64,000 nt of DNA, taken from NCBI GenBank assembly GCA_012295275.1, contig CM022665.1:11656001-11720000 (forward strand). The letters run 5' to 3'. The notes under the pieces were generated by a model that was not told the origin of the DNA, searched no databases, and worked only from the letters and a program-made list of their open reading frames with translations. This document shows, one piece after another, positions 17,259 through 63,385 of this stretch. The position numbers were made by a program, and so were the translations under genes. Each line of letters begins with the position of its first letter. Positions within the stretch are counted from its first letter, which is position 1. The DNA comes from Chrysomallon squamiferum. Its lineage: Eukaryota; Animalia; Mollusca.

Positions 17259-19044
17259 CTATAAGGAAGAGGTCATAAAATACAGATCATTATCAACCAT
17301 GTAATCAGCTGCAGACCCATCTTTACTCATTTCATGTTCGTTCCAGTCCTTATTCACTTTGCTTGCTGGGATGTCTTCAGATGTGGTATTATTCTGAATG
17401 TTACTGTCTAGCTTCTGATCCATAACATCAGTGTTTCTGATAATATGTGTTTGTTCATCATCTCTTTGTCCTTTTATATCCTCATCTAGCATGGAATAGA
17501 TATCATTATCTATCATTTGATCCTTGTTTAATCCAACAGTGTCATTATTCTGACTGTTGATCATTTTTTGTTCTTTAAGGATAGTTGAAGATTTTTTATT
17601 TTCTGATTGTGTGTTTCTTTCAGTGCTTGGTGTGTCAGATCTGGTAAGTGGTTTCAGATCATCAACTTCATCATACAGATGTTCACATTCAGTTTCTACA
17701 TTACTGTCATCAGCCAGTTTCAGTATTGTGTCTTCACTGAGAGATCTCTTTGGTACTTCAGGTTTATTTCTTGTTTCTCCAGGAAGATTCATCATAACAG
17801 ATTTTGTCTGTTTCAGTCTGGGTTTAGGACTTTTCTTTTCATCTGCTTTGGAGTCATGTTGCAGACTGAGATTTTCTTTAGTTGAATTGGGATTTCTTAG
17901 GAAAATTATTTTGACAGATTCCTTTCTGGACAGTTGTGGAGTTATTTTTTCTTCACCTTTACTGTTTAAAGATTTGTATTCCATGTTTTCAGATTTGTCA
18001 CCAGTTTCATTTCCACATTCTGTTTCATCTTCATATCCACAGGATGAGATTGTGTCATAATCTGGTTCATTATTTTGTGGCTGGCTTGCTATATCATTCT
18101 CTTTGCTGAAATTAGTTTTATTTGATTCAGTTACCATCATCTCTGTTTCATTCTTGGTTAAATTTTCTTTAGATTTGTTTATGTTTGAGAATTTGTTAGA
18201 TTCTGATGAATTTTGAATGGTGGCTTTATCTGGATCTGATTCATTACTGCTTGCATTTTGAGAACAGTTTACATAGAGCTCTTGATCATCTTCTAGTGAC
18301 TGTATCTCTTTGAGTTGAGTTGTTTCTGTGTCTCTTTTGTCAGTGTTGTAGTTTTGATAATAGTCTTCACTGTCAGGGTTCAGTTCTTTTTCAAGATTCC
18401 TGGGAACATCAGCATCTTTTAGTTTATTTATACTCAAGTCTTTCTTCTTCAAATTAATATTTTCATTTTCAGAATCATCACTTAATGATTTCTCTCTTGT
18501 TTCTTTGTCATCACAAACTTCTTCAGCAGTTTTCTGTTTACTTATTTTCACAGAATGTTTTGAATGCTGGACTGTGTTAGCATCTGAAACCAGCATTGAC
18601 AAACCCAGATTTTTATTACTAGTATCAGAATTTGTCAGTTTGGGGCTTTTGTCCTTTACATTCTGTTCTTTTTCATTTTCTATCTTAAATTCTGTTTTAT
18701 TTTTATCAGATGTGGATTTCACTGGACTTGAATTATCCAGATCTGTTATGTCCTTATTATGCAGATTGTCTGTTGTTGTATAGTGAGGTTTCTTCTCTAG
18801 TCCTTGCATCTCTAAATCAGTATATCCCTCTGTATCTCCCTCTGTATCTATCTTCTCTGTGGGTTTAATGTCAGCAGTACAGGTTTTGCTGTCTGCTGGT
18901 GAATTAAAGGTTTTGGAGAGAACCTGGTCTTCTTTGTTTATTTCCTCATACTGAACCACAGTATCATCTAGAGTGGAAATCATGTCATTGTTTTTCAAAG
19001 CTGTTGGGTCATCTTTGGTGGATGTATGTTTTTTCTTAGAACAA

Positions 19045-32429: not shown

Positions 32430-35400
32430 TAAAAAAGAGTTATAAGTGTTCTCATTTGTTAAACCTTCAGTTAAGTTTTTCATATTCGTTCAAGTGAATA
32501 TTTTGTTCTGAATTAACATATCCCCATTCATTCAACCTAGCTGAGATTTGTTCATCTACAGATTCTTGTTCTCTTGGATTCTCATTATCTTCATCTGAAA
32601 CTGTATTGGTGTCTGACTGTACAGCAGAAACTGTGTTGTTATGTGAGTTCTGTTCAGTGGAGATTTCTTACACACTGTTAGTATTGTTTGTGTGTCTGTG
32701 GTTTTCCTCAAGTATCTGTTTGTTGTGATTAGATGATGGTATTACATACCTGAAACATATATACAACAATATTTATTTTAATTTTCTCTATTTTCTGGCT
32801 TTATTTATTTATTTATTATTATTATTTTTATTATCATCATCATCATCATCATTATTATTATTTTGTTGTGGTTGTTATTTCTCCCTGTCCCTCCCTCTCT
32901 CACTCTGTCTGTCTGTCTCTCTCTCTCTAAATATGTATGTATGTTTATATGTATCTTTTTTCTTTCATTCTCTCTCTCTCTGGGTCTGTCTCTTTCATAT
33001 CCATCCACACGTACACTTATTCACATATTTGTAAAGACTTACCCACCATGAGATAATCTAATATCTTTATCATTAAATGTAAGAAATAATTTAGAACATC
33101 TAATTAATTAATTAATTAATTAATTAAGACCAAAATATACCCACCAGATTAATATTCCAGTGACAGTTATCAACAGAAGTAACAGAAACACACACACACA
33201 CTGGCTGCTGCTATAGCAAAGTCTTTGTAGTCTGAAGGATAAAAAGAAAAGCAAATTTAAAAAATATAATTAACAAGATAAACTGGAGTATGAAACACAA
33301 AACCATAAATTTTATTTTTGTCTCAACAGAAAATATTCCTTCTCAATGACATTAAAAAAAATATATAATAATAATTTAAATAATATAATAATAAATAATA
33401 TATGCTTGTATACAAATACAAGATGTTTTATTCTGTAATGAAAATATTATAAATTATTTTAGAATACTTACATGTTAACCCACATATATATTTGCAATAA
33501 TACATACTTTTTTAAAATTTAATTTCTTGTTTAAAAACATATTCACAATGCATATCTGTAATGTTTGAGACATTTGCTCATTTTAAATAAAAATTATTTT
33601 TCTGTTCAAATTATGAAACATTTTCATTTATTTATTTATTATTATTATTATTTTTTTATTGTTTGTTTTTTTTTTTTTTTTTTGAGTTAGATTTAATTTA
33701 ATTACTTATGTAAATGATGATAATATTTCTGATATATTTCTCTTTCTGATGATAATGATATATGATGATGGTAGTGATGAATTTTCTAGTTTAACTGATC
33801 TTTTTGAGGAAAAACATATTTATAGTAATGATGATGTTGATTTTTCTTACTTGAGCTTTTTGATGACAGATGTTTCTGATGATGATGATGATGATGGTGA
33901 ATGTGGTGAAGATGCAACTATAATTCTTTCTTTTAAATTTGACATTGTTGATGTTCTTTCAGTTGAAGGTGTGTTTGTCAATCTTTATAACAGTATGTTG
34001 ACTTCTGACAATTTACCATTGCATTCAAATGTCATAGGTTCTTGATTATATCCTTAAGAAAAGTATGTAAATATATTTTGACAAATAATAATGTCTAAAA
34101 TAAATAAATAAATAAATAATAGTAATGATGATGATAATTATTAGAAATAAATTTTTATCTCATGGCTTTTACTTATATCCACACATGCACACATAAAAAA
34201 AAAAAACATATATTTTTCATTATTATGTTTACTATTATTTATACTATATTTTATTTATTTATTTAAATAAAGCAAAATATTAATTACAGATTAGCTAAAA
34301 AAAAAAAAAAAAAAAAAAAAATAAAAAATAATGTTTTATTTATCAAATAATTTATTGAAATTTTATTACAAAGTTCAACAGTGATATTTATATTTAGCCT
34401 TTATTTTCTTAAAAAATATGTGACCAAGCAAATTTGTTAAAGGAATGAACAATAATAAAAGTTCATACATTGTATATTTATAAAACAATTAGTCTTTGCA
34501 AACAATAAAGTATAGAAGTAAATTAGGAGGCAGACTTTTAAAAAATAAAATTATTATGTTAGTACCTACTCTTCAGAATGTGAAACAAAAATCATTGTAA
34601 TTTCCCTATCCTCAGTCTATCATGACTTTTTTCATAACACCAGTTGACTGTAGAAAATAAAATAATGGAATGAAACTGAAATAATATATTCATATTAAGA
34701 ATACATTTAACATACCCTTTATCTCCAACCATACATTCTGTTGAGACTGATTCTTGTTGTTGTAAAATATCTGAACTCTTTTCTGTGACTGAGCAAAAAT
34801 TAGGTTTTTCTTTTGTAAAAGACAGTTTTCAGTTGGACACAGTTCCACAACATCTCTTTCTGTATCCCATAAAACTGTTGTAGAATTCACTACAGTGAGA
34901 CTTGCTCTCTGGTTAGAACTGTAACTAAAATACAAGTCAAGAATTTGTAATGTCATATATTGTCTATTTGTTTTCAGTAAACAAGCACAGTTTTTAGTTG
35001 ATGGCTGAGAATTCAAAAATCCAGGACTTTTTAGATACATGACTGGATTTGATTTGTTTGTTTTCAGATAAATGTCATGACAGATGTCAATGATTGCAAA
35101 ATCTAAAATACATAACAATACATTTGTTACATCCATGTCAAACAATAAACAGTATTCTGTTGTATTTTAATAATAATAAGAAGAAATTAGAAAGGTATAC
35201 TGGTAATAATAATAATAATACAGTTATAATAATAAGAAGAATGTGTATGTGTATGTCTGTTTGTGTGTGTGTGAGAGCAAGAGTCTGTAAGTGTCTGTGC
35301 ATGTGTGTGTGTGTAAATACAAGTGTGCAAGTCTGTGTGTATGTGTATGTATGACATCAAATAACATTAATATTAAAATGAAAGTATATTAAATAAATAT

Positions 35401-36486
35401 GATATTGTTAACTATACTTAACAATTAACACAGTCATAATTCACTTGAGCTGCAGTAACATTACATCCTTGAAAGTTATAAATTAAAAATTCTTGTTGAC
35501 ACTGTGTTTTTCCGTTGCAAGTAACATATGTTTTCCAGTTTATGCGTGTACAGTTTAATTCAGTTATCTGTGTACAGTTTTATCTGTCTGTTTTCCTCCT
35601 CTAACATCCTTGATCTGTATCACTGAACCAACATCACACACAAGATTAAGTGTGACAAAATTATTCTTAAAACAACCTGATGATGTCATCATGTAACCTG
35701 AAAATTAAATTCTTGAATATTTTGAATTCTAAGTATAAAGTTTTCGCAGACAGCAGCTTATTTTAGTTTGATGAAATTTAATTTCGAATTAAATTTACAG
35801 CAAACTATCAGAGTATGTTAGAAATGAGAAATGGTATTTATCGTGGTGTGAACATAATTTTAGCCTAAATATATTTTAAATTTTTCTATATGCTTCTGAA
35901 TAATAATAAAGTATCACTATAAAATAGAAATCTTATATGAAGATTGATATTTTGTACATAGAATTGCAAAAATATCTTTAGATTGAAGATATTAAATCAA
36001 GTTTTGTATGCATGGATTTTATGTATTTTCTTTTCAGTGTTTGAAAATCATGCAAGGGACAAGCAAAATGGTTGTCATAAAACATTTAACAAGTGGTCAT
36101 TATAAGCAGGTAGCTGTCACAGAGAGGTAGCCACATTAGAAGAAGTAACTTTGTGCAGCATTTGATATTACTTAACATATACAGCTAGATCCATGAAACA
36201 AAATAAAAAACATATGTCAACAGTTTAAACATATCTTATGCCTCCACTGTTTGATATCAACAAATGTTCAAGGAACAAAAACTGCAAAATAAAATAAGAA
36301 AACATATGTCAGCAGTTAATATTTTATTTTATATGAAATAACATAATATATGTCAACTGTTAACAACATATTTAATACATCTAGTATTTAATATTACTTA
36401 CCAAATGCTGAAGGAGCAAAATCCATGAAATAAATTAAGACAGTACATGTCAGTAGTTTATGATTGTATCCACAGATACCCTCCAT
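32430..36486 (-). pseudogene. Receptor B, disrupted paralog. Exons: signal 36486-36402, lectin-like 35697-35423, CUB-like 35102-34716, stalk 34052-~33705, TM 33231-33145, tail 32749-~32430
   Basis: Same exon plan as E. The lectin exon is 275 nt vs 276 in E (1-nt deletion at ~35579). The stalk has three in-frame TAA codons, the TM is frameshifted by a (GT)n expansion, and the tail has in-frame stops. The CUB exon is intact (ORF 34690-35145). Confidence 0.8.
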
Positions 36487-37341
36487 GTTTAAAATATTTT
36501 AAATTACTTGTTTGCTTTGTGATACCCTAACTCTTGTTTTTGTGAGTACAAATTCTTCCTGGTTATGAATGTATCTAGAAAAAAGCCTTAAAAATCTGTC
36601 TGTGTAAAGAAGACAGCTCTGACAGGCTGACCTATTAAAATATATAATACATGATTTGTGTATGCTGTGTATTTCTGTTAATATTAACAGGATTGCATAT
36701 ACAGAAAAATGTATTCACACACATTCAAATACTGATTTGTGTGTGTCTGTGCATGTGTGTGTGTGTAGGTGTGGGTATGTGTGTATGTATTTTCGTGTGT
36801 GTGTGTGTATGTGTGTGTTAATGTGGATGTGTTTGTGATTATGTGGGAGTAATTATTTTAAAAAGACATCCACCCCAAAATCCCTTCAGTAGAATGGTAG
36901 GTACACAGCATGTATGTTATAATGATAGATATGAAATCATTTATAAAGTCACAGCTACTCTGAATGTTTGTTTGTGTGATTATTTATGTGTATATGTACT
37001 GATGTGTATGTGTGTGTGCATGTCTACATTTGCATGCGAGTATGTATATGTATGTGTGTATGCATAATGTCTGTATGTATGTGAGTATGTATATATATAT
37101 ATATGAGTATATATATAATGTGTGTATCTACATGTATATCAGATAACATTTGTTATTTTAACTCAGATATCTCCATATATTCTGTTTCTGTTTTCATTTC
37201 TTGCTATACTTTTTTTTAACTTACATTTTTTATTTCTCAGAATACTCTGATTATAAAGAGCATGTGAACAGACACTACTTTACACTTTTGTATGAAATCA
37301 TTCAGCTGTGACCAGTAAAAAGTCACTCAAATTAACTTGTA

Positions 37342-37685
37342 CAGTGAAACTCCTCTAAACCAAACCCTCTGTAAAATGAAGTCCCCAGTGAATATCTTGC
37401 TGTTTGAACCTAATCAGTTTACATAAGTGTCCAGCAAAGCAGCCATGAATTTAACTCATTTTAATTGTTTCTTTTCCACAATGTTTATTTAGTCTAATAA
37501 GTAATTCTAAATTTAGTATGTTTCAAAGTTACTTCAATAAAGAATTTATAAAGAATTTAGAATTTAATTTTTTACAGTAAGCATTTTTATTTTTTTTAAA
37601 GACAATTTCTTGAAACCTCATAAAATCAAATACCTCTTAAAAGCAAACAATTGATTTGGGTGTTCAGGTTAGATGAGTTTCACTG
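37342..37685. mobile_element. MITE with TA target-site duplication
   Basis: TA|CAGTGAAACTCCTCTAAACC ... GGTTAGATGAGTTTCACTG|TA. Confidence 0.75.
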
Positions 37686-38354
37686 TATAATAAAAATCAG
37701 TGAGCAGAGTGTAATGTTTCACAATAATATTTAGCAGACATTATGTACATTATTTTCACACTGAGATATCTTGTAGATACAGATATGATTTTATTTTTAA
37801 AATATTTTATAAAAAAAAAAAATTATTTTACCATCAATTTTTTACTTTTTTAAAAATAAATAAATGAATAAATATATAAAATAAATAAGTAAATATAAAA
37901 AAAAATAAATAAAATGAAATAAAAAAAATAAAAAATTAATTAATTAAGTAAGTAAAGAAATAAAATAAAATAAATATATAACAAAAATTTTAAACCAAAA
38001 TATCAAGAAAATTTTAAAAATAAAACAAAAAGAACAATTTTAAAAACATGTTTTTAAAATGTTTAAACAGAAGCTTTTTTTTTAATGATAAATAACAAAA
38101 ATGAATAAACAAATATATGAAAATAAATGAATAAATATATAAAATAAATAAGTAAATATATAAAAAATAAATAAAATATAAAGAGAGAGAGAGAGAGAGA
38201 GTTATTCAGCTAAATGTTTTGTTAAATATTCAGAATTACATGTTATTAACATCTATACATAAAAGATATCTTAGATTTGCTTTTCCTGTAAACAGAATTT
38301 CTAAATTTTGTGGTTAAATGATGTCTTTATTCACTTTGCTGTACAATGATGCAT

Positions 38355-38541
38355 TGAAAGAGGAAAACTGTAACCTCTGCTCCACTGATTTCTGTTGTCA
38401 GTCAGCAGCAAGGAATCTTGTCAGTTGTAGGACACTGGCTGGATTGAGAAATAGCACAATTGGAGCACTGAGGAGGAGAGAGCTTGTGACCTGTCAGACA
38501 TCAGACTTTTACTCTAACCACTGAGCTAAAGTCCTCTACCC
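38355..38541 (-). mobile_element. Degenerate tRNA-derived SINE (second copy at ~61645-61822)
   Basis: The 5' end has an A-box-like TTTAGCTCAGTGGTTAGAG, followed by GCTATTTCTCAATCCAGCCAGTG...CCTTGCTGCT, which I recall from gastropod SINE bodies. No full tRNA cloverleaf is present. Confidence 0.55.
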
Positions 38542-38692
38542 AGTCAACAGGAATCTGACATTTTAAACTTTTTTTTTTTTTTTTTATTTTGTATTATGTA
38601 ATTTGAAAAAGAAGAAAAAATATTATGAACAAATCCCTATTTAACAATAATCATTTAATATGTATGTTTTTATATCATTCAAGTTCCTATTC

Positions 38693-41015
38693 TCAGACAT
38701 CTGAAAAGTCTGACATTTGTTCCTGTGGGATAATTAGCTGGTTATCTTCTGTATAGTAAATATCATTAACTTTCATTTCATCATCTGGAACACATTTTGG
38801 TTCTTGTTCAGCCTGATAGTAAATATCATTAACTTTCATTTCATCATCTGGAACGCATTTTGCTTCTTGTTCAGCCTGATAGTAAATATCATTAACTTTC
38901 ATTTCATCATCTGGAACACATTTTGCTTCTTGTTCAGCCTGATAGTAAATATCATTAACTTTCATTTCATCATCTGGAACACATTTTGGTTCTTGTTCAG
39001 CCTGATAGTAAATATCATTAACTTTCATTTCATCATCTGGAACACATTTTGGTTCTTGTTCAGCCTGATAGTAAATATCATTAACTTTCATTTCATCATC
39101 TGGAACACATTTTGGTTCTTGTTCAGCCTGATAGTAAATATCATTAACTTTCATTTCATCATCTGGAACACATTTTGGTTCTTGTTCTGTACCATTATCA
39201 CCCTGATAGTAAATATCATTAACTTTCATTTCATCATCTGGAACACATTTTGGTTCTTGTTCTGTACCATTATCATCCTGATAGTAAATATCATTAACTT
39301 TCATTTCATCATCTGGAACACATTGGGGTTCTTGATCAGCCTGATAGTAAATATCATTAACTTTCATTTCATCATCTGGAACACATTTTGGTTCTTGTTC
39401 AGCCTGATAGTAAATATCATTAACTTTCATTTCATCATCTGGAACACATTTTGGTTCTTGTTCTGTACCATTATCAGCCTGATAGTAAATATCATTAACT
39501 TTCATTTCATCATCTGGAACACACTGGGGTTCTTGTTCTACTTCTTCATCATCAGGTGTTTCATCTGAACACTTGTTAAATGGAACATTTGTTTGATCCT
39601 TGAAATAAATATCATTCATTTTCATGTCTTTTTCAGGAACTGATATGATCTGGATTTTAGTTTGTTCTTCTTCTGATTTGGTTGACATACTTTTCAGTGA
39701 CTTCATTTCCATCTCACTGTTCTTGGCACTGTTTATCAATTTTGGTTTTGTTTTCTTTTCCAGAAAACATTTGGGATTTCTTTCTATTCTCCATCTGTCA
39801 GTGTCTCCCTGGTCATCGTCTTTGGTACAATAAACTTGATTGATGTCCATCAGTTTGTCAGGGACACAATTTTCAGAGTGCTCTGCAGTAAAATTGTCCT
39901 GTCCAGATGGTTCCATCTCCTCCAGGTTTATTTCAGTGTAGTTGCTGAAACGTTTGTCTAGTTCTGGGATTTCACAGTATAAGTTGCTGGATTCTTTGGG
40001 TTCAGGTTCATGATGCGATTTGAAATTATTTTTCTTTATCCTGAAACAAAGAGAAACAAACCACTTAATATTATTATTTATTTATTTATTTATTTATTTT
40101 TTGGATTTGTTGTCCATATTGACAGTAGAAAGATCCTATATTCAAACTATACAGAAATGAGGTCTGTTTTTTTTTTAATTGAATTAATTTAACTTTGTGT
40201 ATTTGTCTATTTTCCAGATTGGATTATGAATTAATTCAGTGGACTTTAGATTATGTTATGAAAATAAAAAGGAAAAAATTATAATACTGAATTAAAAGTA
40301 AAAAAGAAAAAAGAAAATTTAAATATTAATAATAGATCTATAACATAATAGTAACAAATCAACATAATAAAAATAATAAAAAGAAGAAGAGGTAGAGGAA
40401 AAACAACAAAGCAACAACAGCTACAGTAGCAACAACAACAACAGCAAAAAGAAGATGAACACAAAAAGATTAGATGCAAATTTTAAAGAACATTCAATTT
40501 CCTTGTTTGTTATATAATCAATCATCTTCCTAACTTATTCATTTTTCAAATTCTTTTCCTCGACATTTCTAAAAAAAAACTAAAAAAAAACATACTCTGA
40601 TTAAGGATTATAGAAAAGGATCATTGCATTTTTGAATGTATGTGCCCTTACTGTTTAGGTTTTAATCATAATGTATTACATGACAGTGCACACTAACGTG
40701 ATTATTATATACATACCTGTAAAGATAACATACTCCTATTACAACTGTTGCAATAATCAAAACAACACCTACGACAGCAACAGGTATTATGATTATCTTG
40801 ATATCGGTATCTGAAAATATAAAGCTATCTCTATAACATTAACAAAAAATATAATCTTAGTAATACCTCAGAATACTTTACTATTAACTTGTATTTGAAA
40901 TTTCTTTCAAAATAGAAGCCTTGTGTATTCACCACTATTGAGTCCCTTAGAAGGAGGTTTATAAATACATGTATACGAGTGTTTGTCTGTGTGTCTCTAT
41001 GTCTGTCTATCTTTC

Positions 41016-41060
<45 letters not shown>

Positions 41061-43770
41061 ATATATGTATGTATGTATGTATGTATGCTTGTATACATAT
41101 ATACTTACATATATGTGTGTGTGTGTTTATGTATGTGTCTATATATGTATGTAATTGACTACTACTATTAATAATACTAATATACAAGTGAATATTCTGT
41201 TGTACTGAACAATAAACAAATATGTATAACATTACAATTAAAATACAACAGAACAACAACAAAAAAGATACCTTCTTTCCCATTAAGTGCTGAGTGGTTG
41301 CTGAAAACTGAGGTACTGACATTGTTCAGCAGTTTTGTAGTGAAGAATGATGATGAAGTACTGTTATTATTCAGTTTTGTAGTTTTGTGATGAAGAATGT
41401 CTAATGGTGATGAAGTACTGTTATTATTCAGTTTTGTAGTGTCCAATGATGATGAAGTACTGTTAATATTCAGTTTTGTAGATGTCTAATAATGATGAAG
41501 TACTGTTAATACTCAGTTTTGCAGTGTTTGATGATAATGTGCTGCTGATAAACATGGTCACTGATGTTGATTGTGTTATTGTGGTTGAAGCTGTTGTCTG
41601 GTTCTTGCTGTCAGAAACTTCAGTAGACATGTTTGTGGTTTCTGCTGCTGTTGTAGATCTGTCAGTCTCATGTTTCACTGCTGTTGTTGATGTTGATGGT
41701 GATGTTGTGTGTAGTCTGGTGTTGTTCTAGAAGCTGTAGTGATTGTACTATTCCTTGTGTAAGTACAGCTCAGATTCATAAGAACATCAGGTGAACCTGT
41801 AATAGAATTGTATGTATGTATGTATATATGTATGTATGTATGTATGTATGCATGTATATGTGTTTGTATGTATGTATGTATGTATGTATATATACACTTA
41901 TGTATGTATGTATGCATGTATATGTGTTTGTGTATGTATGTGTGTACAAATGTAGGTAGGTAGGTAGGTATGTGTTGTGAATGTGTGTGTCTGTGTGTGT
42001 GTGAATGTGTGTATATTTGTTTGTGGGTTTGTGCATTTCTTGAGTGTGTCTGTTAATGATGTAAACTGCACAATTTTCTTTCAACAAATATGAAAATAAA
42101 ATAATAAGGAATTATTAATCTGTTTATAATTTTTTTTATTTACCTTTTACCTGTATCCATATATTATGATTTCTGCTTGTTTGACTGGAATACTCTATAA
42201 AAACACTTCCACCATATCCTGGTATTATGTTATTTATCAGTCTTTCTTCTGTGGTATTTGATGATATTTGATAATTTAGGTTGGAGTCAGATGTAATGTT
42301 CAAATACCACTTTTCACTTGTAGTTTTATTTCTATAAAAGTCAGCAATTATAACTTGTATGTTTTTTCCTTGAATTTCACAATGACACATCACATTATCT
42401 GAGTAAGACTGAGGATTCCTGAGAAAAAGTGAGACATTGACTGTTTCTGTGAGACTAGAACACATGTCAAAGTTAACAGAATCTGAAAGATATACAAATA
42501 TTACAAAATAAATTCAACAAATCAAAAAAAACATGAAATAAATAAAATTTGAAAGAAAGTGTTTGTTTTTATTTGTATGTGTTTTAGTAAATGTTTTTAA
42601 AATACCACTAAAATGTTAAAAATTCTGCATCATTTCACATTTTAAAAAAAAAGACAGTGAGAGAAACTTAAAAACAGTTACTAAAATACATATTATTTTT
42701 TGCTTTTAAATAGTTTCATATTTTAACTATACTTTGTTTTCTTCTTTTTTTTTTACTTGCATTAAGGTTGACATTTGTGTAGACTTTTTGTATTAAACGA
42801 AATAACAGAGACAACATAAGCCTAATATTAAGATGAATTTTCAAAATTAGCCAAGATCAGAAATAACTTTACATAGGCTGTTTAAAATTGATCAGACAGA
42901 TTTGAAAGAAGGAATAAGAAGTAAATCTTCTGATAAAATATTTTTCATATATTAATAATATTATTAACAGAGGAAACAGTTAAATATCAAGTAATTATAA
43001 AAAACATGATATTTAATATATAAAGAAACAAAAAAGATAAAATATAATATATATATATATAGGTATGCAGATAGGTATATGCAGGTTAAGTATATATAAA
43101 TATGGAAGTAGAAAAAATTAAGTAAAATAAATATTTAATTATACAAACCTGGAACACATTCATAATGAGCTAAAACCAAGTGTCTACCAGAACAGTTGAA
43201 ATATTGAGGTTTAAAATATTGAGGATTGAAATATTCAGTACACTGTGTTTTACTGTTGCAGTTTGTCTGTAGTTTTATATGAGATGACATTTTGTTGTTT
43301 TCTGCTGTCTGTCCATGACATTTAGAATCTGTTACACAAGTATCACTGGAACTGCTGTTTGAATAAGACTCTGATAAAACGTGAATCACTGAATTGTTGG
43401 GACAAGCTAAATCTACTGTGTATGTGTTATCTGTAGAACAGTTCCATAGCTTGTGCTGTTGCAAACCACACACTAAATAATAAGTAAACAAAAAGAAGAA
43501 ATAAACAAATGGTATTAGTGGAACAGACACATGCATACTGAATGAGAATTATTGTTAAGATCTAATATAAATATATACAACTTTAAACTTTGATATTTTT
43601 AAGCTCTGTGTTATCTTACTGGAGCAGAAATGACATGATTGAAGACAGGAACATAATACACACTATGTCTAAGAATAATCTAGAAACTGAATTTATATAT
43701 CACTAGAATACATTGAACTTTATCTTGAAAGTTAAAATGTTAACTTTGTGTAACATGGTTGTCCTCTAAG

Positions 43771-43844: not shown

Positions 43845-43968
43845 TTCATTTTTAAAATCTCCTCAAGAAATAAAACAAAAACTCACCTTGTTTAACATCA
43901 AAGAAAAACATAACTGCAATAAAACAGAAGTAAAAAGAGCAAAGCAAGGAAACAAGTGTTTCAGCCAT
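38693..43968 (-). CDS. Receptor C: signal 43968-43887, SUEL/Gal-lectin-like 43472-43149, CUB-like 42482-42144, stalk 41796-41272 (internal frameshifts), TM 40810-40717, tail 40040-38693 with 12 NDIYY repeats
   Basis: Signal MAETLVSLLCSFYFCFIAVMFFFDVKQ|G. Lectin exon LACPNNSVIHV...CNSKTQC...HYECV. TM IIIIPVAVVGVVLIIATVVIGVCYLY. All splice phases are consistent. The 525-nt stalk exon contains compensating frameshifts with a TGA at 41675-41677, so C may be truncated or a pseudogene, or the assembly may be in error. Confidence 0.8.
38745..39540 (-). repeat. Coding minisatellite: 12 units of 63 or 75 bp (EQEPKCVPDDEMKVNDIYYQA with or without DNGT)
   Basis: The core tagtaaatatcattaac recurs 12 times at spacings of 63 or 75 nt. 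Confidence 0.97.
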
Positions 43969-47351: not shown

Positions 47352-48137
47352 TTAAATATGAACAGACAACTTTTCATAGACATCATTTGATGTTCTAGAT
47401 GAAGGATTCAAATGTTCGTATTCATTTTGTCCAGAATTAACAGAATTTCTCTCTCTCGTAGAATCTTGACCATTTGAAGACGTCAGATCGTTCTGGTTTG
47501 TTTCAGCTTGTTCAACAGGATTTGAAAAATTGACGTAACTATTTTGCTGAGACTTTTCTCTAACGTGAAAGTTGTTATTTAATTGATGATTGACTTCACT
47601 GATTTCGGAATTTAATTGTTGTTGGTTGTTTGAAGATGCGTGATCATTTTGGTTAGCAATATCTTCATAGTGATTAACAAAGTGGTTATCTTGAGAATGT
47701 TGAGTTGTACGAGAACTGTGTGCAATCTGTGCAACTTGACCATTGTTTCCTACATCATCTAGTTTGTAGACTCCATCACTCGTCATTGTGTTTTGGTTTG
47801 TTTGTGTAGGATTAGTGGCAGACATTTCTTGATTGTTAGATTTTGTCTTTCTGTTGTGTCTCCTGAGATGCCTGTAAGATATTGAAAATGTATATAAATT
47901 TATATATCAGAATAGAAACACATTGTTGATATATAAATAAATAAATAAATAAATAAAATATTTTTTTAAAAATATAACATAAAATAAGGAGAAAAATAAA
48001 AGAAAATACTCTAAAGCAAAAGACATCAAGAATTACAAAAAAACAAGCAAAGAAACCTTTCTATACTGACATTATTAATTTTGAGATACAATTTGATTTG
48101 TTTGCCTTACTAACAAAAATATACACATAGACGGACT

Positions 48138-48176: not shown

Positions 48177-51100
48177 AGAGAGAGCGCAAAAGTTAAGTAT
48201 GTATATTTAATAAGTCAAACATATATAAAAAAAGTCAAGTTAAAACAAATATCAACTGTCCATCCAAAACAAACCACAAAATCCTATTGTAAGACACTCA
48301 CACACGCAGAGACAAAGACAGCGCAAAAGTTAAACATATATATTTAATAAGTCAAAATAAAAAAGTCAAATTAACAATTAAAACAAAAATCAACTCTTCT
48401 ACTGAAACAAACAACAAAAAGAATAGTAAAATATAATCCTGTAATGATTTTTTTCTTTTGCAAAAGAAGAAAATAAGTAACTTTGTGTTCGAGAGTTATT
48501 ATAATTCACTCACCAAAACAAAATACTGCTAACTGTAACAAGGAGTAGAAACAAAACTGCTGTCAAAACTGACAACGCAGTAACAGTGGAAATGTTGTTT
48601 TCTTGATATGAAAAAAATAATTTATATAAATGCCAATAATTTTTATGAAAAAAAAAAAGAATGAAAGAAAAAAGAAATATAAATAAACATACAATAATAA
48701 AAACAATTTAAATAGTAATAATAATATTTAAAAAAATTATAAACCTGGTTGTGTAAAGCCAATATTTACAAATATTTATAAAATCAAAATTACTTAAATC
48801 GAAATTTGCAATATATTAATTAAACTTTACTGAAATAAAACTTATCAAAATAAATATATGTATGTGTGTAGGTGTGGGTGTATGTATAGATATGTATCTA
48901 TATATGTATGTATGTATGTATGTATGTAATTGACTACTACTATTAATAATACTAATATACAAGTGAATATTCTGTTGTACTGAACAATAAAAATAAATAA
49001 TTATAACATTACAAGAGAACAACAACAAAAAAAGATACCTTCTTTCCCATTAAGTGCTGAGTGGTTGCTGAAAACTGAGGTACTGACATTGTTCAGCAGT
49101 TTTGTAGTGAAGAATGATGATGAAGTACTGTTAATATTCAGTTTTGTAGTGTCTAATGATAATGTGCTGCTGATAAACATGTTCATTGATGTTGATTGTG
49201 TTATTGTGGTTGAAGCTGTTGTCTGGTTCTTGCTGTCAGAAACTTCAGTAGACATGTTTGTGGTTTCTGCTGCTGTTGTAGATCTGTCAGTCTCACGTTT
49301 CACTGCTGTTGTTGCTGTTGTTGATGTTGGTGTGTAGTCTGGTGTTGTTCTAGAAGCTGTAGTGATTGTACTATTCCTTGTGTAAGAAGTACAGCTCAGA
49401 CTCATAGGAACATCAAATGAAATCTGTAAAATATGTATGTATGTATGTATGTATGTAGTATGTGGGTGTGTGTGTGTACGTGTGGGGTTTGTTGTGTGTA
49501 TTTTATGAGTGTGTCTGTTAATGATGTAAACTGCACAATTTTCTTTAAACAAATATGAAAATAAAATAATAAGGAATTATGAATCTGTTTATAATTTTAT
49601 TTATGTACCTCTTACTTGTATCCATATATTATGATTTCTGGTTGTTTGACTGGAATACTCTATAAAAACACTTCCACCATATCCTGGTATTATGTTATTT
49701 ATCAGTCTTTCTTTTGTGGTATTTGATGATATTTGATAATTTAGGTTGGAGTCAGATGTAATGTTCAAATACCACTTCTCACTCATAGTTTTATTTCTAT
49801 AAAAGTCAGCAATTATAACTTGTATGTGTTTTCCTTGAATTTCACAATGATACATCACATTATCTGAGTGAGACTGAGGATTCCTGAGAAAAAGTGAGAC
49901 ATTGACTGTTTCTGTGAGACTAGAACACATGTCAAAGTTAACAGAATCTGAAAGAAAAACAAATATTACAAAAAATTCAACAAATCGAAAACAACATGAA
50001 ATAAATAAAATTTGAAAGAAAGTGTTTTTTTTTTATTTGTATATGTTTTAGTAAATGGTTTTAAAATACATTTGACATTATTTCTTTCTTGTCACAAAAA
50101 TGTTAAAAATTCTGCATCATTTCACGTTTTTTTTAAAAAGACAGTGAGAGAAAAATATAAACAGTTACTAAAATATATATTTATTTTTTGCTTTTAAATA
50201 GTTTCATATTTTAATATTTTGTAGTTGCATTAAAGGTTGACATTTGTGTAGACTATTTGTATTAAACGAAATATCACAGACAGCATAAGCCTAATATTCA
50301 GATCAGTTAATTAGCCAAGATCAGAAATAACTTTACATAGGCTGTTTAATACTGATCAGACAGATTTGAAAGAAGGAATAAGAAGTAAATCTTCTGATAA
50401 AATATTTTTCATATATTAATAATATTATTGAAAGAGGAAACAGTTAAATATCAAGTAATTATAAAAACATGATATTTAATATATAAAGAAACAAAAAAGA
50501 TAAATAGGTATGTATGCAGATAGGTAGGTAAGCATGTAAATATGGATAAAAATTAAGTAAAATTAATATTTAATTATACAAACCTGGAACACATTCATAA
50601 TGAGCTAAAACCAAGTGTCTACCAGAACAGTTGAAATATTGAGGATTGAAATATTCAGTACACTGTGTTTTACTGTTGCAGTTTGTCTGTAGTTTTATAT
50701 GAGATGACATTTTGTTGTTTTCTGCTGTCTGTCCATGACATCTGTAATCTGGTTTACATGTCTCACTGTAACTGCTGTTTGAATAAGACTCTGATAAAAC
50801 GTGAATCACTGAATTGTTGGGACAAACTAAATCTACTGTGAGTGTAGAACAGTTCCATAGTTTATGTCGTTGAAAACTACACACTAAATAATAATTAAAA
50901 GAAAAGAAGAAATAAATAAATGGTATTAGTGTAACAGACACAAGAGCTATATAATACAGTAATATAATAATGTAAGAACAGAATGTAGATACATGTATTA
51001 ATTTAAAAAAAAAAAAAAATCAACAAATGTGATACAGTATATGTAAAGAAAAAGTGTAGGAAAATGTAGGCAAAATAGGGTGAAGTTAAGCTAGGATGGT

Positions 51101-51812
51101 TATGGGTGCAGTTGTAAAAGTTATTCTTACTTTGATGGAAAGTGGGTTGAGAGATGGTTGCCATGATCATGTAATTGGGATTGAGAATAACTTAATAGTT
51201 CCTAGAGGTAAGGTTTCAGGTGGGAAATGGTGGCAAGTTCACATTTTGTAACTTTTTCAGTTCTTATCTGAATATCCCAAAATCCGGAAAACTGTGTTCT
51301 GTGAAATCGAGGGTCACAATACAAATATTTGCTACCTACAGATCGACCTACATACATTCACAAACAGATGCACATACATATATATATATGCAGGATACAC
51401 ATATACGCATTCACACGCACACACTGAAACCATATAGACAGACAGAGAGATGAATGGATAGGACTATAATGAGAAAAATAGATATTGACTGCTAGAGAAA
51501 TGATTAGATACGTACAAATAGATATACAGTCAGAGAGATATTTAGATGACAGTTACATAAATATATAGACATACAAACAGATAGAAAGATAGATATAAAG
51601 ACAGATGGTTTGCTAGACACGCAGACAGATACACAGACATATTTACTGAATGGATGTTTCTTAGTAATAACAGAAATCTCAGTAGTATGTACGGTTTACC
51701 ACTTATGAATAAAAACCAAAATGAACCCACCTTGTTTTGTATCCAAGTAAAATGTGTATACGATAAAACATAACAGTATCGAGCAACGTGAAGAAATTCT
51801 TGTTTCTGCCAT
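47352..51812 (-). CDS. Receptor D, apparently intact: signal 51812-51731, lectin-like 50883-50584, CUB-like 49947-49616, stalk 49423-49039, TM 48601-48514, tail 47871-47352
   Basis: Signal MAETRISSRCSILLCFIVYTFYLDTKQ|G. Ectodomain exons are nearly identical to C. TM VTALSVLTAVLFLLLVTVSSILFW followed by basic HLRRHNRK. The N/Q-rich tail ends NEYEHLNPSSRTSNDVYEKLSVHI. The ORF is open if the CAA|GTAAG donor at 49616 is used. Confidence 0.85.
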
Positions 51813-53811: not shown

Positions 53812-56800
53812 TCACATGTAATATAGTTCATTATCTTCCATAAAACAGCCAGGCTTGCAGGAGTCTTGACTGTCTTCTTCTGCTACAAGTTTAGCATGTT
53901 TACTCTTGGGCAATGTGCTTTCATAAACGTCCTTGTCTTTCACGAGTGCACCTGGAAGACATAGAGGAGGCTCGGACGCTGGTCTGCCGATGGCGTCAGC
54001 TGGTACAGAGTACGGATGCTCGTCCTCGGAGTCTTGTTTCTCTCGTTTAGAATTTTTCAGAGAGTCTAAAGGCAGCATGTAAGGAACGCTGTCCCTTGAC
54101 TCCACTGGCTGTTGTATCGAATTACCGACTGGTTTATTCTTACCAGACTCTGCAAGAATGGTATCAGGAGACTGTTCCTTGTTGGTGTTTTTTCTGGAAT
54201 TACCATCATTACCAGCCGTTCTATTTAGACTGTGTTCATTTGTATTCTTATCTGAAATAAAGCCAATCATTCTGTAGTATAAATCTGGTTTATTTTCTTT
54301 CGTGTTTGCTGCTTCGGTTACTTTTCTTTGTTGTGATTAGAATTATCGCAACTCTCATCCATCTGAAAACATTTATTGTCATACTCCATGTCAGTGGTTT
54401 TCTTTTCCAAGTATTCCTTTCTCTTAAATCTTCTTCTGCAATAAAATATAAAAAATATCTCACTGAAAGTAAAATCAAATATGTATAATCAAGTCAAATC
54501 ATAAAAACACCAGTTCGATAAAAATATTGGTATGGACTACATCTCTTTCGGAAATCGACTGATAACAAGCAAACAGCATTATTAATTAATAAGAATATAT
54601 GCAAAGTACTGGTTGATCATAAACTCACCTGATAACAAAAACACCTGTAATTGCTGCACCAACGAGCAGTATTCCCAAAATCGTTGATATCACTATTATT
54701 ATAACTGTGGTTCTCTTGTTTTCTGAAGAAAAAAATATTAAAAAATCCAGATCTTAGATGTGTTTAAATATTCTATTGATTTTTCTAATTTCATTATTAT
54801 TGTTATTATTTCTGTTATTGTTATTGTTATTGCTATTATTATTATTGTTGTTATTATTAGTATTAAATTACATTTATAAGACCATGTACGTAGTAGCAAT
54901 AAAGCACGCACAGACATGCATATTAAGACATGTAATAATAATTTGTACTAATATTCACCTATGCTTTCTAAATCTTTTAAATTTTCATTTCGTGGCGAGG
55001 TAACTGTTGACGTGAACGTTGATGGTGACGAGGCACCTGTTGATAAAGATGCTGAATTCAAATGTGACACTGTAGCTGTTGATGTTGTCAGTATATTCAT
55101 GTCTGATATATTGCCATTGCATTCAAGACTTATTTGACTGCTGTTTGCTGTAATAGAAAGAAATAAGAAAAACTGCGTTTGAGCAAATTTGTTAAGGTAA
55201 TGAACAATAATAAAAATTCATGAATTATATATTTATAAAACTATTAGTCTTTGCAAACAATAAAGTATAAAAGCAAATTTACGGGACGATATTAGGAGGT
55301 AAACATTTAAAAAATAATTTATGATGTTAGTACGTACTCTTCACAATGTGAAACAAAAATCATTATAGTTTCCCTATCCTTAGTCTATCACGACTTTTTT
55401 TTCATAAGACCAAAAGTTGACTGTAGAAAATGACAGAATGAAACTGAAATAATACATGCATATTAAAAATACATTTGACATACCCTTTATCTCCATCCAT
55501 ACATTCTGTTGAGACTGATTCTTGTTGTTGTAAAATATCTGAACTCTTTTTTGTGACTGAGCAATAATTAGGTTTTTCTTTTGTAAAAGACAGTTTTCAG
55601 TTGGACACGGTTCCACAACATCTCTTTCTGAATCCCATAAAACTGTTGTAGAATTCACTACAGTGAAATCTGCAGCTTGTGTATAATTATCTTCGTACGA
55701 AAAGTCTAAACTGAGTATTTGAAATGCCATTAAATCGCTACTTGCTGTTAATAGGCACGTACATTTGTTATATGACGCATTTGACTTTGGGAATCCAGGG
55801 CTTTTCAAATGCAACATTGAATCTGTTTTTTGATATTCGTTAGCACAGATGTCAAAAGTATTAGAATCTGAAATATAAAATATTATAAAATATTATCAGT
55901 TATCTTGTTGGAAGAGAAAATTCTTACTTCAAGAAGACAAATGCAAAATCTTAATTTCCAGTCACATAATACAAAGTACTGTATATATACTTTATAGAAA
56001 ATACGTATAATCAGCAGTTAAATAAAAGTCACTGATTCTAGACACTGACACATCCAGCCAAACATCAGATACAGAAACTGATGACATGAATACCTGATGA
56101 CATGAATACCTGTCATACCCATTTCCAAACATCAAGATGCAATGCAAAGTCACAGAAAGATACCCATCAAGTCCATTTGAATCAAGCAGAACGAATGGTG
56201 AACAGAAGAGAACATATCTTATTTACCAAGTAAATAGAAGACAATGTTACTGTTCACATTCTAAAAGAAGTTGAAATATTCCTGGCGTATGACTGAATGC
56301 AGTAGCAATGAGCTTTACTTAGTAACCATCAAGAGTGGCATTCTGAACAGAAAACTTTGTCGCAACCAGTTTGAAGTATTCGACTGATGATTTCTGCTCC
56401 CAATTTATTTAATTTGCCTTGTGTGTTAATTCACCCCAGATTCAGAAACATTGTGATGCATGGTGCTCTAAAGGTATTGACGGTATTTGTATATCATAAT
56501 TATTGACTCAAAAGTGTATTGCTGAATTACTGAACTATTATTATTATTATTATTTTTGTTGCTGTTGTTGTTATTATTATATGATATGGATGACGAACAA
56601 TTAGTTATATTATATTGTATTCAGTTTACAAAAAAATAAATAATAAAAATAAATAAATAAATAAATTATAATAAAAAAAATTATATAAATAAATAAATAA
56701 ATAAACAAATAATCAAAAAATTAAAATTGAAATAAAATAAATTAAAAAATTAAAAAATTAAAATTAGAAATAGAAAAAACAATAAAAATTCGACTACTGC

Positions 56801-56823
56801 TGTTACTACTGTTACTTCTATTA

Positions 56824-61979: not shown

Positions 61980-63385
61980 TCAGACATCTGAAAAGTTTGA
62001 CATTTGTTCCTGTGGGATAATTAGCTGGTTATCACTCTGATAGTAAATATCATTAACTTTCATTTCATCATCTGGAACACATTTTGATTCTTGTTCTATA
62101 CCATTATCACTCTGATAGTAAATATCATTAACTTTCATTTCATCATCTGGAACACATTTTGGTTCTTGTTCTGTACCATTATCACTCTGATAGTCAATAT
62201 CATCGTCTTTGGTACAATAAACTTGATTGATGTCCATCAGTTTGTCAGGGACACAATTTTCAGAGTGCTCTGCAGTAAAATTGTCCTGTCCAGATGGTTC
62301 CATCTCCTCCAGGTTTATTTCGGTGTAGTTGCTGAAACGTTTGTCTAGTTCTGGGATTTCACAGTATAAGTTGCTGGATTCTTTGGGTTCAGGTTCATGA
62401 TGCGATTTGAAATTATTTTTCTTTATCCTGAAACAAACAGAAACAAACCACTTAATATTATTATTTATTTATTTATTTATTTTTTGGATTTGTTGTCCAT
62501 ATTGACAGTAGAAAGATCCTACATTCAAAGTATACAGAAATGAGGTCCAAGTTTGTTAAATTGAATTAATTTAACTTTGTGTATTTGTCTATTTTCCACA
62601 TAGGATTATGAATTAAATTCAGTGGACTTTAGATTATGTTATGAAAATATAAAGAAAAACATTATAATACTGAATTAATAGTAAAAAAGAAGAATTTTTT
62701 TTAAATATTAATAATAGATCTATAACATAATAGTAACAAATCAACTTAATAATAATAATAAAAAGAAGAAGAGGAAGAGGAAAAACAACAAAGCAACAAG
62801 AGCTACAGTAGCAACAACAACAACAGCAAAAAGAAGATGAACACAAAAAGATTAGATGCAAATTTTAAAGAACATTCAATTTCCTCATTTGTTATATAAT
62901 CAATCATCTACCTAACATTTATTTTTCAAATTCTTTTCCTCGACATTTCTACAAAAAAACAAGAACAAAAAATGTACTCTGATTAAGGATTTAAGAAAAG
63001 GATCATTTTTGAATGTATGTGTCCTTACTGTTTAGGTTTTAATCATAATGTATTACATGACAGTGCACACTAACGTGATTATTATATACATACCTGTAAA
63101 GATAACATACTCCTATTACAACTGTTGCAATAAACAAAACAACACCTACGACAGCAATAGGTATTATGATTATCTTGATATCGGTATCTGAAAATATAAA
63201 GCTATCTCTATAACATTAACAAAAAATATAATCTTAGTAATACCTCAGAATACTTTAGTATTAACTTGTATTTGAAAATAGAAGCCTTGTGTATTCACCA
63301 CTATTGAGTCCCTTAGAAAGAGGTTTATAAATACATGTATATGAGTGTTTGTCTGTGTGTCTCTATGTCTGTCTATCTTTCAAAT

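Follow-up and report, generated by a model that had tools for sequence, protein, structure and literature searches.

A tandemly repeated tyrosine motif in the tail exon of a probably disrupted receptor gene copy of Chrysomallon squamiferum

In the mollusc Chrysomallon squamiferum, the terminal exon of one member of a tandem gene family (copy C) carries 12 repeats of a short tyrosine-containing motif, and the corresponding exon of a paralog (copy F) carries two. The original prediction proposed that the motif is a docking site whose valency is tuned by repeat number. The question raised by this locus is whether the 12-copy array belongs to a working signaling receptor or is a repeat expansion in a gene copy that no longer works. 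We analyzed a stretch of 64,000 nucleotides (GenBank assembly GCA_012295275.1, contig CM022665.1, positions 11,656,001 to 11,720,000 of the forward strand), hereafter called the window, in which gene copies are designated A to F. All coordinates are those of the window.

Organization of the receptor genes

The window holds tandem paralogous genes for a type I receptor. Their parts are arranged in the order signal peptide, SUEL-lectin-like domain, probable CUB-like domain, optional Ser/Thr-rich stalk, membrane anchor and acidic tail. Copy E is naturally without the stalk exon, and copies C and D have a common ectodomain type with unrelated tails. The exons of C and the relevant exons of F are as follows.

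43887..43968, minus strand: copy C exon 1, MAETLVSLLCSFYFCFIAVMFFFDVKQ, with the start codon and a predicted signal peptide
43149..43472, minus strand: copy C exon 2, SUEL/rhamnose-binding-lectin-like domain
42144..42482, minus strand: copy C exon 3, all-beta domain, probably CUB-like
41272..41796, minus strand: copy C exon 4, Ser/Thr-rich stalk, 525 nt, phase 1 at both ends, broken
40717..40810, minus strand: copy C exon 5, membrane anchor DTDIK-IIIIPVAVVGVVLIIATVVIGVCYLY, phase-2 end
38693..40040, minus strand: copy C exon 6 (terminal), 448-aa acidic, predicted cytoplasmic tail plus stop, from the ORF translation and the acceptor
38583..38588, minus strand: poly(A) signal AATAAA, ~105 nt past the C stop (ATTAAA is also present at 38659)
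63094..63187, minus strand: copy F membrane-anchor exon
61980..62427, minus strand: copy F terminal exon, 148-aa tail with two units of 25 aa (62040-62189)

The counterpart of C exon 1 in copy D is located at 51731-51812.

The minus-strand frame containing the C tail (38693..40081) comprises 462 open codons. The tail exon begins at an acceptor (...tttcag|G at 40041/40040, with the AG at 40041-40042), downstream of which are 448 amino acids and the stop codon. The encoded tail has a pI of 4.1 and contains 118 Asp and Glu, 28 Tyr and 17 Cys residues. The anchor exon, which encodes IIIIPVAVVGVVLIIATVVIGVCYLY and has a phase-2 end, is compatible in phase with the tail exon, and their junction reads R-IKKNNFK. 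Because the anchor exon is directly upstream and is followed by this basic stretch, the C tail is predicted to be cytoplasmic. The cytoplasmic placement of the motif that was originally proposed is thus supported as a prediction of the gene model, given the anchor, the basic stretch and the acidity of the tail.

A reading in which there is no cytoplasmic tail is barely credible. It would require either that the plus-strand ORF at 38738-39568 is the real gene or that the acidic region is extracellular and tyrosine-sulfated. Sulfation sites have acidic residues around the tyrosine, and the surroundings of the tyrosines in the tail resemble such sites. Also, the plus strand has an uninterrupted 276-aa frame over the array. 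However, this frame ends at the array borders and would encode a repeat of hydrophobic residues only, whereas the minus-strand frame, which F also has, runs 500 nt past the array to a canonical acceptor. Moreover, the series of signal peptide, ectodomain, single anchor and then RIKKNNFK places the tail inside the cell. Both the antisense ORF and tyrosine sulfation were rejected on ORF extent and topology.

Exon 2 of C aligns with the SUEL/RBL lectin domain of latrophilin over ~90 residues, which take in the Cys pattern and the ...YECVP end. Searches against PDB latrophilin lectin domains gave E=3.7e-5 with the single sequence (8djg_E) and 2.2e-5 with a profile, with values ranging to 7e-4. The score against Pfam PF02140 is 24.1 bits, under the cut-off of 31.4, and another PF02140 score is 22.1 bits. 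The latrophilin residues YGR, DPC and KYL, which have a role in sugar binding, are replaced by YSN, FNC and HLV in C exon 2, so sugar binding by this domain is doubtful. Exon 3 gave no Pfam match and no PDB sequence match, and its AF2 model has a pLDDT of 46.3, which is too low for use of the fold. CUB clusters account for 22 of 30 matches of exon 3 in an ESM Atlas feature search, with a top score of 0.94, which we regard as a lead only.

Under the thresholds applied, protein searches with the C tail (at near lengths) and with the F tail and the exon 3 alignment (at longer ones) gave no match. When metagenomes were scanned with the F tail, 148 stretches fitted the pattern, and tblastn confirmed none of them. 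The literature searched for such receptors, or for a precedent of repeat number or NPxY in such tails, yielded nothing relevant. The window has no Rfam matches, and ARAGORN predicts no tRNAs in it.

The repeat array and its comparison with copy F

The repeated part of the C tail and the tyrosine elements around it are given below.

38753..39544, minus strand: coding minisatellite, 12 units of 63 or 75 bp, each with the end ...CVPDDEMKVNDIYY
39602..39640, minus strand: older diverged motif copy, VPEKDMKMNDIYF
39827..39865, minus strand: older diverged motif copy, VPDKLMDINQVYC, with an F counterpart at 62217-62237
39929..39979, minus strand: ITAM-like pair YCEI-x9-YTEI, membrane-adjoining and common to C and F

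Translation confirms the 12 NDIYY repeats, MKMNDIYF and MDINQVY that were first noticed in this tail. Splitting the tail at NDIY[YF] gives 13 matches, which correspond to 12 units ending PDDEMKVNDIYY and to MKMNDIYF; MDINQVY is upstream of both MKMNDIYF and the array. Eight units are 21 aa long (63 bp) and three are 25 aa long (75 bp), and the first unit has a unique linker. TRF reports the array at 38753-39538 with a period of 63, 11.9 copies, 91% matches and a score of 1171. Overlapping TRF rows with periods of 75 and 276 are also given on the C array.

Five of the 12 units are identical at the DNA level, as are three consecutive units that occupy 189 bp in all (38942-39130). The 63- and 75-bp units occur in irregular order and have private point variants. 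All 14 units of C and F share a 39-bp core without a single difference. When 13 units are compared, variation is seen in 7 of 24 linker columns and in 0 of 39 core columns (Fisher p=6e-4). The core is invariant at synonymous sites as well. Therefore, the lack of core variation can be explained by homogenization through repeat exchange instead of by protein-level selection. The older copies VPEKDMKMNDIYF and VPDKLMDINQVYC retain V-P, Met at -6, Asn at -3, a hydrophobic residue at -1 and the Tyr, even though they have changed at synonymous sites and in their flanks.

C and F were duplicated very recently, and the identity between their flanks is 99.3% in one stretch of 279 nt and 97.6% in another of 125 nt. 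The alignment of the two copies agrees with the earlier observation that F has two repeats and is missing a block of ~110 aa. F is without the counterpart of C positions 39295-39816 (522 nt, including this block) and without further units. The contrast of 12 copies in C with two in F is therefore a contrast between near-identical paralogs compared in one assembly. The F stalk (63617-63998), anchor and tail form a single open frame of 307 codons (924 nt), which is the part of F inside the window.

A motif common to otherwise unrelated tails

Three further tails carry related sequences at their ends.

17280..17516, minus strand: end of the A tail, with MIDNDIY (17496-17516) and MVDNDLY (17280-17300)
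47352..47871, minus strand: D tail, unrelated to the C tail although the ectodomain is of the C type; its end has NDVY within YEHL-x10-YEKL
53821..53841, minus strand: C-terminus of the E tail, MEDNELY-YM-stop

The motifs originally reported for A and E are present. The pattern M..N[DE][IL]Y has 18 matches in a six-frame translation of the window, and all 18 are in the tail exons of A, C, E and F. By chance, a mean of 0.09 matches and a maximum of one are expected (100 second-order Markov simulations of the window). The broader pattern M..N[DEQ][ILV]Y has 20 matches, again all in the A, C, E and F tails. The A tail ORF spans 17259-19097 (612 aa), and the phases of the A anchor and tail exons are mismatched at the obvious acceptor.

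As was initially suggested, the motif is common to tails that are otherwise unrelated: no pair of tails gave a blastp match with E<0.01, and the best pair (C and E, E=0.018) aligns up to the motif, on which the alignment ends. The tails have diverged beyond recognition save for the motif near their C-termini. In the receptor copies of the window, the conserved form is V-P-x-x-x-M-x-x-N-[DE]-[IL]-Y, with one occurrence per array unit.

The positions kept across the paralogs are Asn at -3, a hydrophobic residue at -1 and Met at -6. Among the 20 broader matches, N-x-x-Y and Met at -6 are found in all 20, and position -5 is hydrophobic in A only. The Pro at -2 of canonical NPxY is absent, and Asp, Glu or Gln is there in every copy. 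Residues +1 to +3 after the Tyr vary among paralogs (YQA, FKD, CTK, SML, FMT and YM-stop). Because positions -3, -1 and -6 are kept, while the positions read by SH2 domains are variable, an NxxY-type PTB ligand fits better than a Src substrate that becomes an SH2 site. The original prediction had likened the motif to Src-family substrate sites. The putative anchor is at -6, as compared with -5 in Shc/Dab-type ligands. IRS/Dok-type PTB domains prefer a hydrophobic anchor at -6 or beyond, and the Dok-type consensus is Y/M-x-x-N-x-L-pY.

According to the accessible part of one source, PTB domains require NPxY or NxxY, with a beta-turn formed with the Asn at -3 (PMC4985636). NxxY variants are described as accepted PTB ligands in available portions of two papers (PMC4985636, PMC8007030), and phosphorylated NxxY is given as the ligand of the Dok1 PTB domain in an excerpt of another (PMC4479986). 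We predict from the sequence that the motif is an NxxY-type dock for a PTB adaptor, probably once it is tyrosine-phosphorylated.

The ITAM-like matches (YCEI-x9-YTEI in C and F, and YEHL-x10-YEKL in D) are just modestly over chance. The pattern arises in 35 of 2000 shuffles of the F tail and in 27 of 2000 shuffles of the D tail, and six-frame translation gives a background of 0.16 matches per 150 aa.

Damage to copy C and explanations for the 12 copies

In a six-exon GT-AG model, copy D is open, with an ORF of 568 aa (1707 nt). The equivalent model of C has five in-frame stops, all of which are in exon 4 (codons 289-352 of 903, between 41677 and 41486). Two indels are found in this exon: 2 additional nt relative to D near 41706-41710, and one T at 41482 that F lacks. 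The first of these is called against D only, because F is beyond the window at that point. The two indels total +3, and neither is within a homopolymer run. Exon 4 is symmetric, and its skipping gives an intact ORF of 728 aa. There are 19 cryptic GT-AG pairs that restore the C frame, all with weak donors (GTTCAC, GTACTT, GTACAA, GTGAAA). An alternative acceptor at 41726, which cures the first frameshift and leaves the second, was rejected. The neighboring copy B, which is in the duplicated block that also holds C, is a truncated and frameshifted fragment.

With five stops and two frame-shifting indels upstream of the anchor, C encodes no 12-valent receptor under the canonical model. In the assembly, C is therefore a broken copy, although skipping of the symmetric stalk exon would spare its frame; the frame-breaking indels could be assembly errors. 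The proposal that valency is tuned by repeat number is thus unsupported. The new element here is this frame-breaking damage upstream of the 12-copy array, seen against the intact model of D.

The explanation that we favor, and to which we give an even chance of being correct, is that the array is a real coding array of a predicted PTB-docking motif and that its 12 copies are an unconstrained expansion in a recently disabled C, not tuned valency. According to this explanation, the last exon of receptor copy C, which encodes the tail, contains an in-frame 63/75-bp coding minisatellite. In the intact members F, E and A, one to three copies of the motif would bring in an IRS/Dok- or CED-6/GULP-like adaptor, and in C/F and D the motif would do so beside the ITAM-like Tyr pair, a logic known from CD200R and Draper/Jedi-1. 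C would have reached 12 copies through the recent multiplication of a derived 63-bp unit by slippage or unequal exchange. The two indels and five stops in the stalk exon make an unconstrained expansion the most likely origin of the 12-copy state. The main lesson is one of caution, in that the array more likely shows fast repeat expansion under relaxed constraint than tuning of signaling.

It is unlikely, but conceivable, that C works as originally imagined, with acidic I-Y sites that are Src-family substrates docking SH2 proteins and a repeat number that is an adaptive valency dial, in the manner of the CagA EPIYA or p130Cas YxxP arrays. Src-type kinases prefer Ile at -1 and upstream acidic residues, and the motif matches in both respects. 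The tail and anchor exons of C are intact and match their F counterparts at ~99% identity, exon 4 skipping would leave the 728-aa ORF, and a stalk-less member (E) exists. There is also a parallel in DCBLD1/2, CUB-bearing scaffolds whose YxxP arrays bind CRKL after phosphorylation by Fyn/Abl, as the accessible part of PMC6029619 describes. However, the in-frame stops precede the anchor in the canonical model, and the five DNA-identical units suggest a very recent and possibly neutral expansion. Moreover, the contexts that follow the Tyr differ (YYQA, YFKD, YCTK, YSML, YFMT, YYM-stop), whereas -3 and -6 are kept. We consider it improbable that an old invertebrate PTB-docking motif, M-x-x-N-x-[IL]-Y, has been placed on a minisatellite as a natural valency dial for phosphotyrosine signaling, with C expressed as a stalk-less, 12-valent receptor via exon 4 skipping. 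In that event, slippage could alter the number of docks several-fold between recent copies or alleles, because the motif would be carried by a coding minisatellite.

Errors of assembly, in the array copy number, in the exon 4 indels or in both, are quite improbable. Short reads could miscount the 189 bp of identical units (38942-39130), and the indels are within low-complexity, CAA/CAT-rich and repeat sequence. Against such errors, the 63- and 75-bp units are irregularly ordered and have private point variants, the window has zero N, neither indel is in a homopolymer run, and no frame errors are found in D (1707 nt, six exons) or in the visible part of F (924 nt). In addition, B, the other copy of the duplicated block, is broken too. 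We assign similarly little probability to a functional motif that is not a signaling dock and that instead directs, for example, sorting or endocytosis in the way of FxNPxY signals recognized by clathrin adaptors. NPXY frequently serves internalization, according to available portions of PMC4055271 and PMC8007030. However, the motif has neither Pro at -2 nor an aromatic residue at -5, the sequence after the Tyr contains no conserved YxxPhi pattern, and 12 copies are unneeded for sorting.

Should the motif prove to be a genuine adaptor dock, the genes would represent an uncharacterized class of invertebrate lectin-type receptors with interchangeable tyrosine-signaling tails. They would also provide a rare animal case of a docking motif on a minisatellite that is able to shift valency in one step. 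Several known receptors resemble the proposed arrangement in part. CDCP1 is a CUB-bearing scaffold receptor with a multi-tyrosine tail that is phosphorylated by Src-family kinases. DCBLD1 and DCBLD2 (ESDN) are likewise single-pass, with a CUB-type ectodomain and several repeated Tyr motifs bound by adaptors once phosphorylated by Src-family kinases or Abl, as described in the accessible part of PMC6029619. They differ in that the motifs are YxxP, the reader is the SH2 domain of CRKL, and the motifs are scattered and not in tandem; the CUB assignment of the receptors here is a lead only.

In CD200R, according to the part of PMC8007030 that is available, the Pro of the motif is conserved among mammals only, Ile or Leu occupies -1, an acidic stretch is upstream, and the motif recruits Dok2-RasGAP. 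CD200R1 is similar to the receptors here in being single-pass with N-x-[IL]-Y and an upstream acidic stretch, which correspond here to N-[DE]-[IL]-Y and an upstream DDE. CD200R1 differs in having an Ig ectodomain and one motif copy, in the extended form EEDExxPYxxYxxKxNxxY. The receptors of the window have instead a lectin/CUB-like ectodomain, an upstream VPxxxM and up to 12 tandem copies, and the likeness to CD200R1 is drawn at the level of the motif and its setting only.

In Jedi-1, Draper and CED-1, NPXY (read by GULP/CED-6) is combined with an ITAM (read by Syk/Shark), according to an excerpt of PMC4055271. The C and F tails similarly pair NxxY with YCEI-x9-YTEI, and D has YEHL-x10-YEKL. 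Unlike the receptors here, Draper, CED-1 and Jedi-1 (MEGF12) have EGF-repeat ectodomains and a single NPXY, with the Pro present.

Arrays of short motifs whose number varies between alleles or strains include CagA EPIYA, p130Cas YxxP, Chlamydia Tarp and the 48-bp VNTR of DRD4 exon 3, the last of which is in a cytoplasmic segment of an animal receptor. These arrays have other motifs with SH2 or SH3 readers, and their variation between individuals or strains is documented. In contrast, the comparison here is between two paralogs of one assembly, and the long copy is broken upstream.

A tandem family of receptor genes

An AT-rich stretch (GC 26-33% across 2-kb windows) with abundant microsatellites, no Ns and GT-AG introns in its genes carries a receptor gene family in tandem on the minus strand, as copies A, B, C, D, E and F. 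Copy F is truncated by the window edge, and its 5' part lies outside. The GT-AG introns mark the DNA as eukaryotic, evidently from an animal. The gene model for D comprises six exons with canonical GT-AG sites that yield one intact 568-aa ORF; C has the same six-exon set, also with canonical sites.

Features of the receptor genes (window coordinates)
51812-51731, minus, D exon 1, signal peptide (MAET...)
50883-50584, minus, D exon 2, SUEL-lectin-like domain
49947-49616, minus, D exon 3, second all-beta domain
49423-49039, minus, D exon 4, Ser/Thr-rich stalk
48601-48514, minus, D exon 5, membrane anchor
47871-47352, minus, D exon 6, tail
43968-43887, minus, C exon 1
43472-43149, minus, C exon 2
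42482-42144, minus, C exon 3
41796-41272, minus, C exon 4
40810-40717, minus, C exon 5
40040-38693, minus, C exon 6
17259-19097, minus, A tail (612-aa ORF)
about 20220-20302, minus, A candidate anchor exon
about 34427-35700, minus, B fragment

The C tail is predicted to be cytoplasmic because in C, as in D and E, the anchor exon ends in phase 2 (AG/GT or TG/GT), immediately ahead of a basic tail start. In A, the phases of the candidate anchor exon and the tail exon fail to match at the obvious acceptor. In C, the anchor exon IIIIPVAVVGVVLIIATVVIGVCYLY has AG as its last bases (phase 2), and joining to the G of the tail exon gives R-IKKNNFK. The C tail as a whole is strongly acidic (pI 4.1; D+E = 118/448 residues).

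Exons 1-3 and a portion of the stalk are common to C and D (41128-43531 versus 48903-50942) at 88-92% nucleotide identity, and the protein identity of this common ectodomain is 83-93% per exon. In contrast, their anchors and tails are unrelated (tails 38693-40040 versus 47352-47871): C carries NDIYY units, and the D tail ends in an ITAM-like pair. One ectodomain with different tails resembles the arrangement of vertebrate paired receptors.

Exon 2 of C (43149-43472) scores 24.1 bits against Pfam SUEL_Lectin, under the 31.4 cut-off, and matches PDB latrophilin lectin domains over ~90 residues (E=3.7e-5 as a single sequence, 2.2e-5 as a profile). In comparison with the latrophilin-3 lectin domain, YSN, FNC and HLV replace YGR, DPC and KYL, which we take to be the sugar-site motifs; thus, the SUEL-like domain of C may be unable to bind sugar. 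For exon 3 of C, no match was found in Pfam or among PDB sequences, and the AF2 model (pLDDT 46.3) is unusable. A language-model feature search returned CUB in 22 of 30 matches (top score 0.94); the CUB identity of this exon is a lead only. The stalk holds a second coding minisatellite, a 42-bp (14-aa) unit N-S-T-S-S-x-L-D-T-T-K-L-N-x that is rich in N-glycosylation sequons. TRF reports 3.4 copies in C (41398-41539) and 5.6 in F (63675-63910), and D has fewer.

A tyrosine motif shared by otherwise unrelated tails

The pattern M..N[DE][IL]Y has 18 six-frame matches in the window, all of which lie in receptor tail exons (A 2, C 13, E 1, F 2). In 100 second-order Markov simulations the pattern came up 0.09 times on average and never more than once. 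The tail-motif observation is real and greatly exceeds chance. Apart from the motif, no relationship is seen among the tails of A, C/F, D and E: C-E, the closest pair, aligns with E=0.018, and that alignment terminates on the motif.

In every tail the motif is located at or near the C-terminal end. The A tail finishes with MVDNDLYFMTSSL-stop, the E tail with MEDNELYYM-stop and the D tail with SNDVYEKLSVHI-stop, while C and F have 20 residues between the final unit and the stop. The paralogs keep the Tyr, with a hydrophobic residue directly before it (-1), Asn three residues before it (-3) and, except in D, Met at -6; the motifs of C/F and E additionally carry [VK]-P at -11/-10. No conservation of residues after the tyrosine was found across the paralog tails. 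Judged from sequence, this conservation across old paralogs is the best evidence that the motif has a function. The A tail carries further classical tyrosine motifs (YEEI, YVNC, YDEV and YSML).

The original prediction noted a resemblance to Src-family substrate sites and suggested a conserved docking motif whose valency is tuned by repeat number. Conservation on the N-terminal side, Asn at -3 and variable residues after Tyr favor a PTB reading over an SH2 one, and the motif is likely an NxxY-type PTB ligand. It would be bound via its N-terminal side, with an Asn-dependent turn; such binding, like all binding proposed here for receptors A-F, is what we infer. A peptide-library study by Songyang et al. 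(J Biol Chem 2001) reportedly gave Y/M-x-x-N-x-L-pY as the consensus for the Dok PTB domain, and a literature text search for this Dok-type pattern found nothing.

PTB ligands are described as needing NPXY, NPXpY or NXXY, with the turn stabilized by Asn -3 (PMC4985636). The PTB domain of Dok1 is reported to bind RET and integrin beta tails through phosphorylated NxxY (PMC4479986; PMC3938774), and one account of IRS-type PTB domains gives them an upstream anchor that is hydrophobic or Trp (bioRxiv 10.64898/2026.07.03.735260). CD200R is described as signaling via N-x-[IL]-Y with an acidic stretch upstream, where Pro is conserved in mammals only (PMC8007030).

An ITAM-like pair, YCEI-x9-YTEI, adjoins the membrane in C (39929-39979) and F (62316-62366), and YEHL-x10-YEKL is located at the C-terminus of D (47364-47417). 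These pairs are only modestly above chance, with 35/2000 shuffled tails matching for F and 27/2000 for D. The pairing of motif and ITAM-like element recalls the layout of Jedi-1, Draper and CED-1, in which NPXY is reported to bind GULP/CED-6 and the ITAM to bind Syk/Shark (PMC4055271).

Docking tails with several tyrosines, NxxY motifs and coding minisatellites each have precedents. What is new is that all three occur together in a lectin/CUB receptor family for which our literature searches found no description. Protein and metagenome searches found no protein relatives of the C/F tails or of exon 3, and the absence of the family from protein databases is weakly established.

The repeat array of C and the break upstream of it

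All of the sequence statements in the original prediction are correct: 12 units in C, 2 in F, a block of ~110 aa missing from F, and motifs in A and E. TRF detects a period of 63 (11.9 copies, score 1171) at 38753-39538, within a minus-strand reading frame that stays open between 40081 and its stop codon at 38693. The tail exon of C (acceptor tttcag/G) encodes 448 residues, including 12 units that each terminate in CVPDDEMKVNDIYY. Eight units are 21 aa long, three carry a DNGT insert and reach 25 aa, and the first has a linker of its own. C also retains older motif copies, VPEKDMKMNDIYF and VPDKLMDINQVYC. The F tail exon (62427-61980) encodes 148 residues with two units. The flanks of C and F are 99.3% and 97.6% identical, and F lacks both the segment C 39295-39816 and the additional units. 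Poly(A) signals are present ~35-115 nt past the stops of both copies.

Five of the 12 C units are identical in DNA, three of them consecutively, and two further units are one and two bases away from these. The 63-bp unit corresponds to the 75-bp unit less 12 nt flanked by GA, and F has only the 75-bp type. From the identical units and the derived 63-bp form, we infer that the array grew mainly through recent amplification of the derived unit. Among 13 units, 7/24 linker columns vary as against 0/39 core columns (Fisher p=6e-4). Synonymous sites of the core are invariant too, and this core invariance may owe no less to repeat homogenization than to peptide-level selection.

As assembled, copy C is interrupted upstream of its tail. 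Under a D-type model, its 903 codons include five in-frame stops at codons 289-352, all within stalk exon 4, because two indels put the stretch between them in the wrong frame: a +2 indel versus D near 41706-41710, and one surplus T versus F at 41482. An alternative acceptor for exon 4 at 41726 repairs the first shift, and the second remains. Inside the window, F reads through stalk, anchor and tail as a single open frame of 307 codons. The proposed docking role is plausible for the motif, read as PTB-type, but a 12-copy array as a tuned device is unsupported because C is interrupted.

Random assembly error could produce such a break. However, the 3' part of C belongs to a duplicated block (34427-41629 versus 55182-64000, 88-96%) that also contains B (34427-35700), a truncated 5' piece of an E-like gene that has a frameshift as well. 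The SUEL exon of B aligns to E in two different frames, which indicates the frameshift, and the CUB-like exons of B and E are 62% identical. B lacks an E-like anchor or tail because the duplication stops in the intron preceding the anchor exon. The presence of broken C and broken B in one duplicated block favors true decay over assembly error.

Even so, pseudogene status of C is not firm, as the gene could potentially be read without its stalk exon or via cryptic splicing. The two indels sum to +3. Exon 4, 525 nt long with phase 1 on either side, is symmetric, and skipping it therefore gives an intact 728-aa SUEL-CUB-anchor-tail ORF. E (54631-55868) appears to be a natural stalk-less member, in which the CUB-like exon joins in frame straight to the anchor exon (donor AAAG/GTATGT, phase 1; acceptor ...cttcag/AA). 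The frame of C is also restorable by 19 cryptic GT-AG pairs, but the donors are weak in all 19.

Unrelated to the receptors, a plus-strand exon at 29687-30076 codes for the C-terminus of a helicase with a Sec63/Brl domain (Pfam PF02889, E=2.7e-10; Atlas also), which resembles ASCC3 or Brr2.
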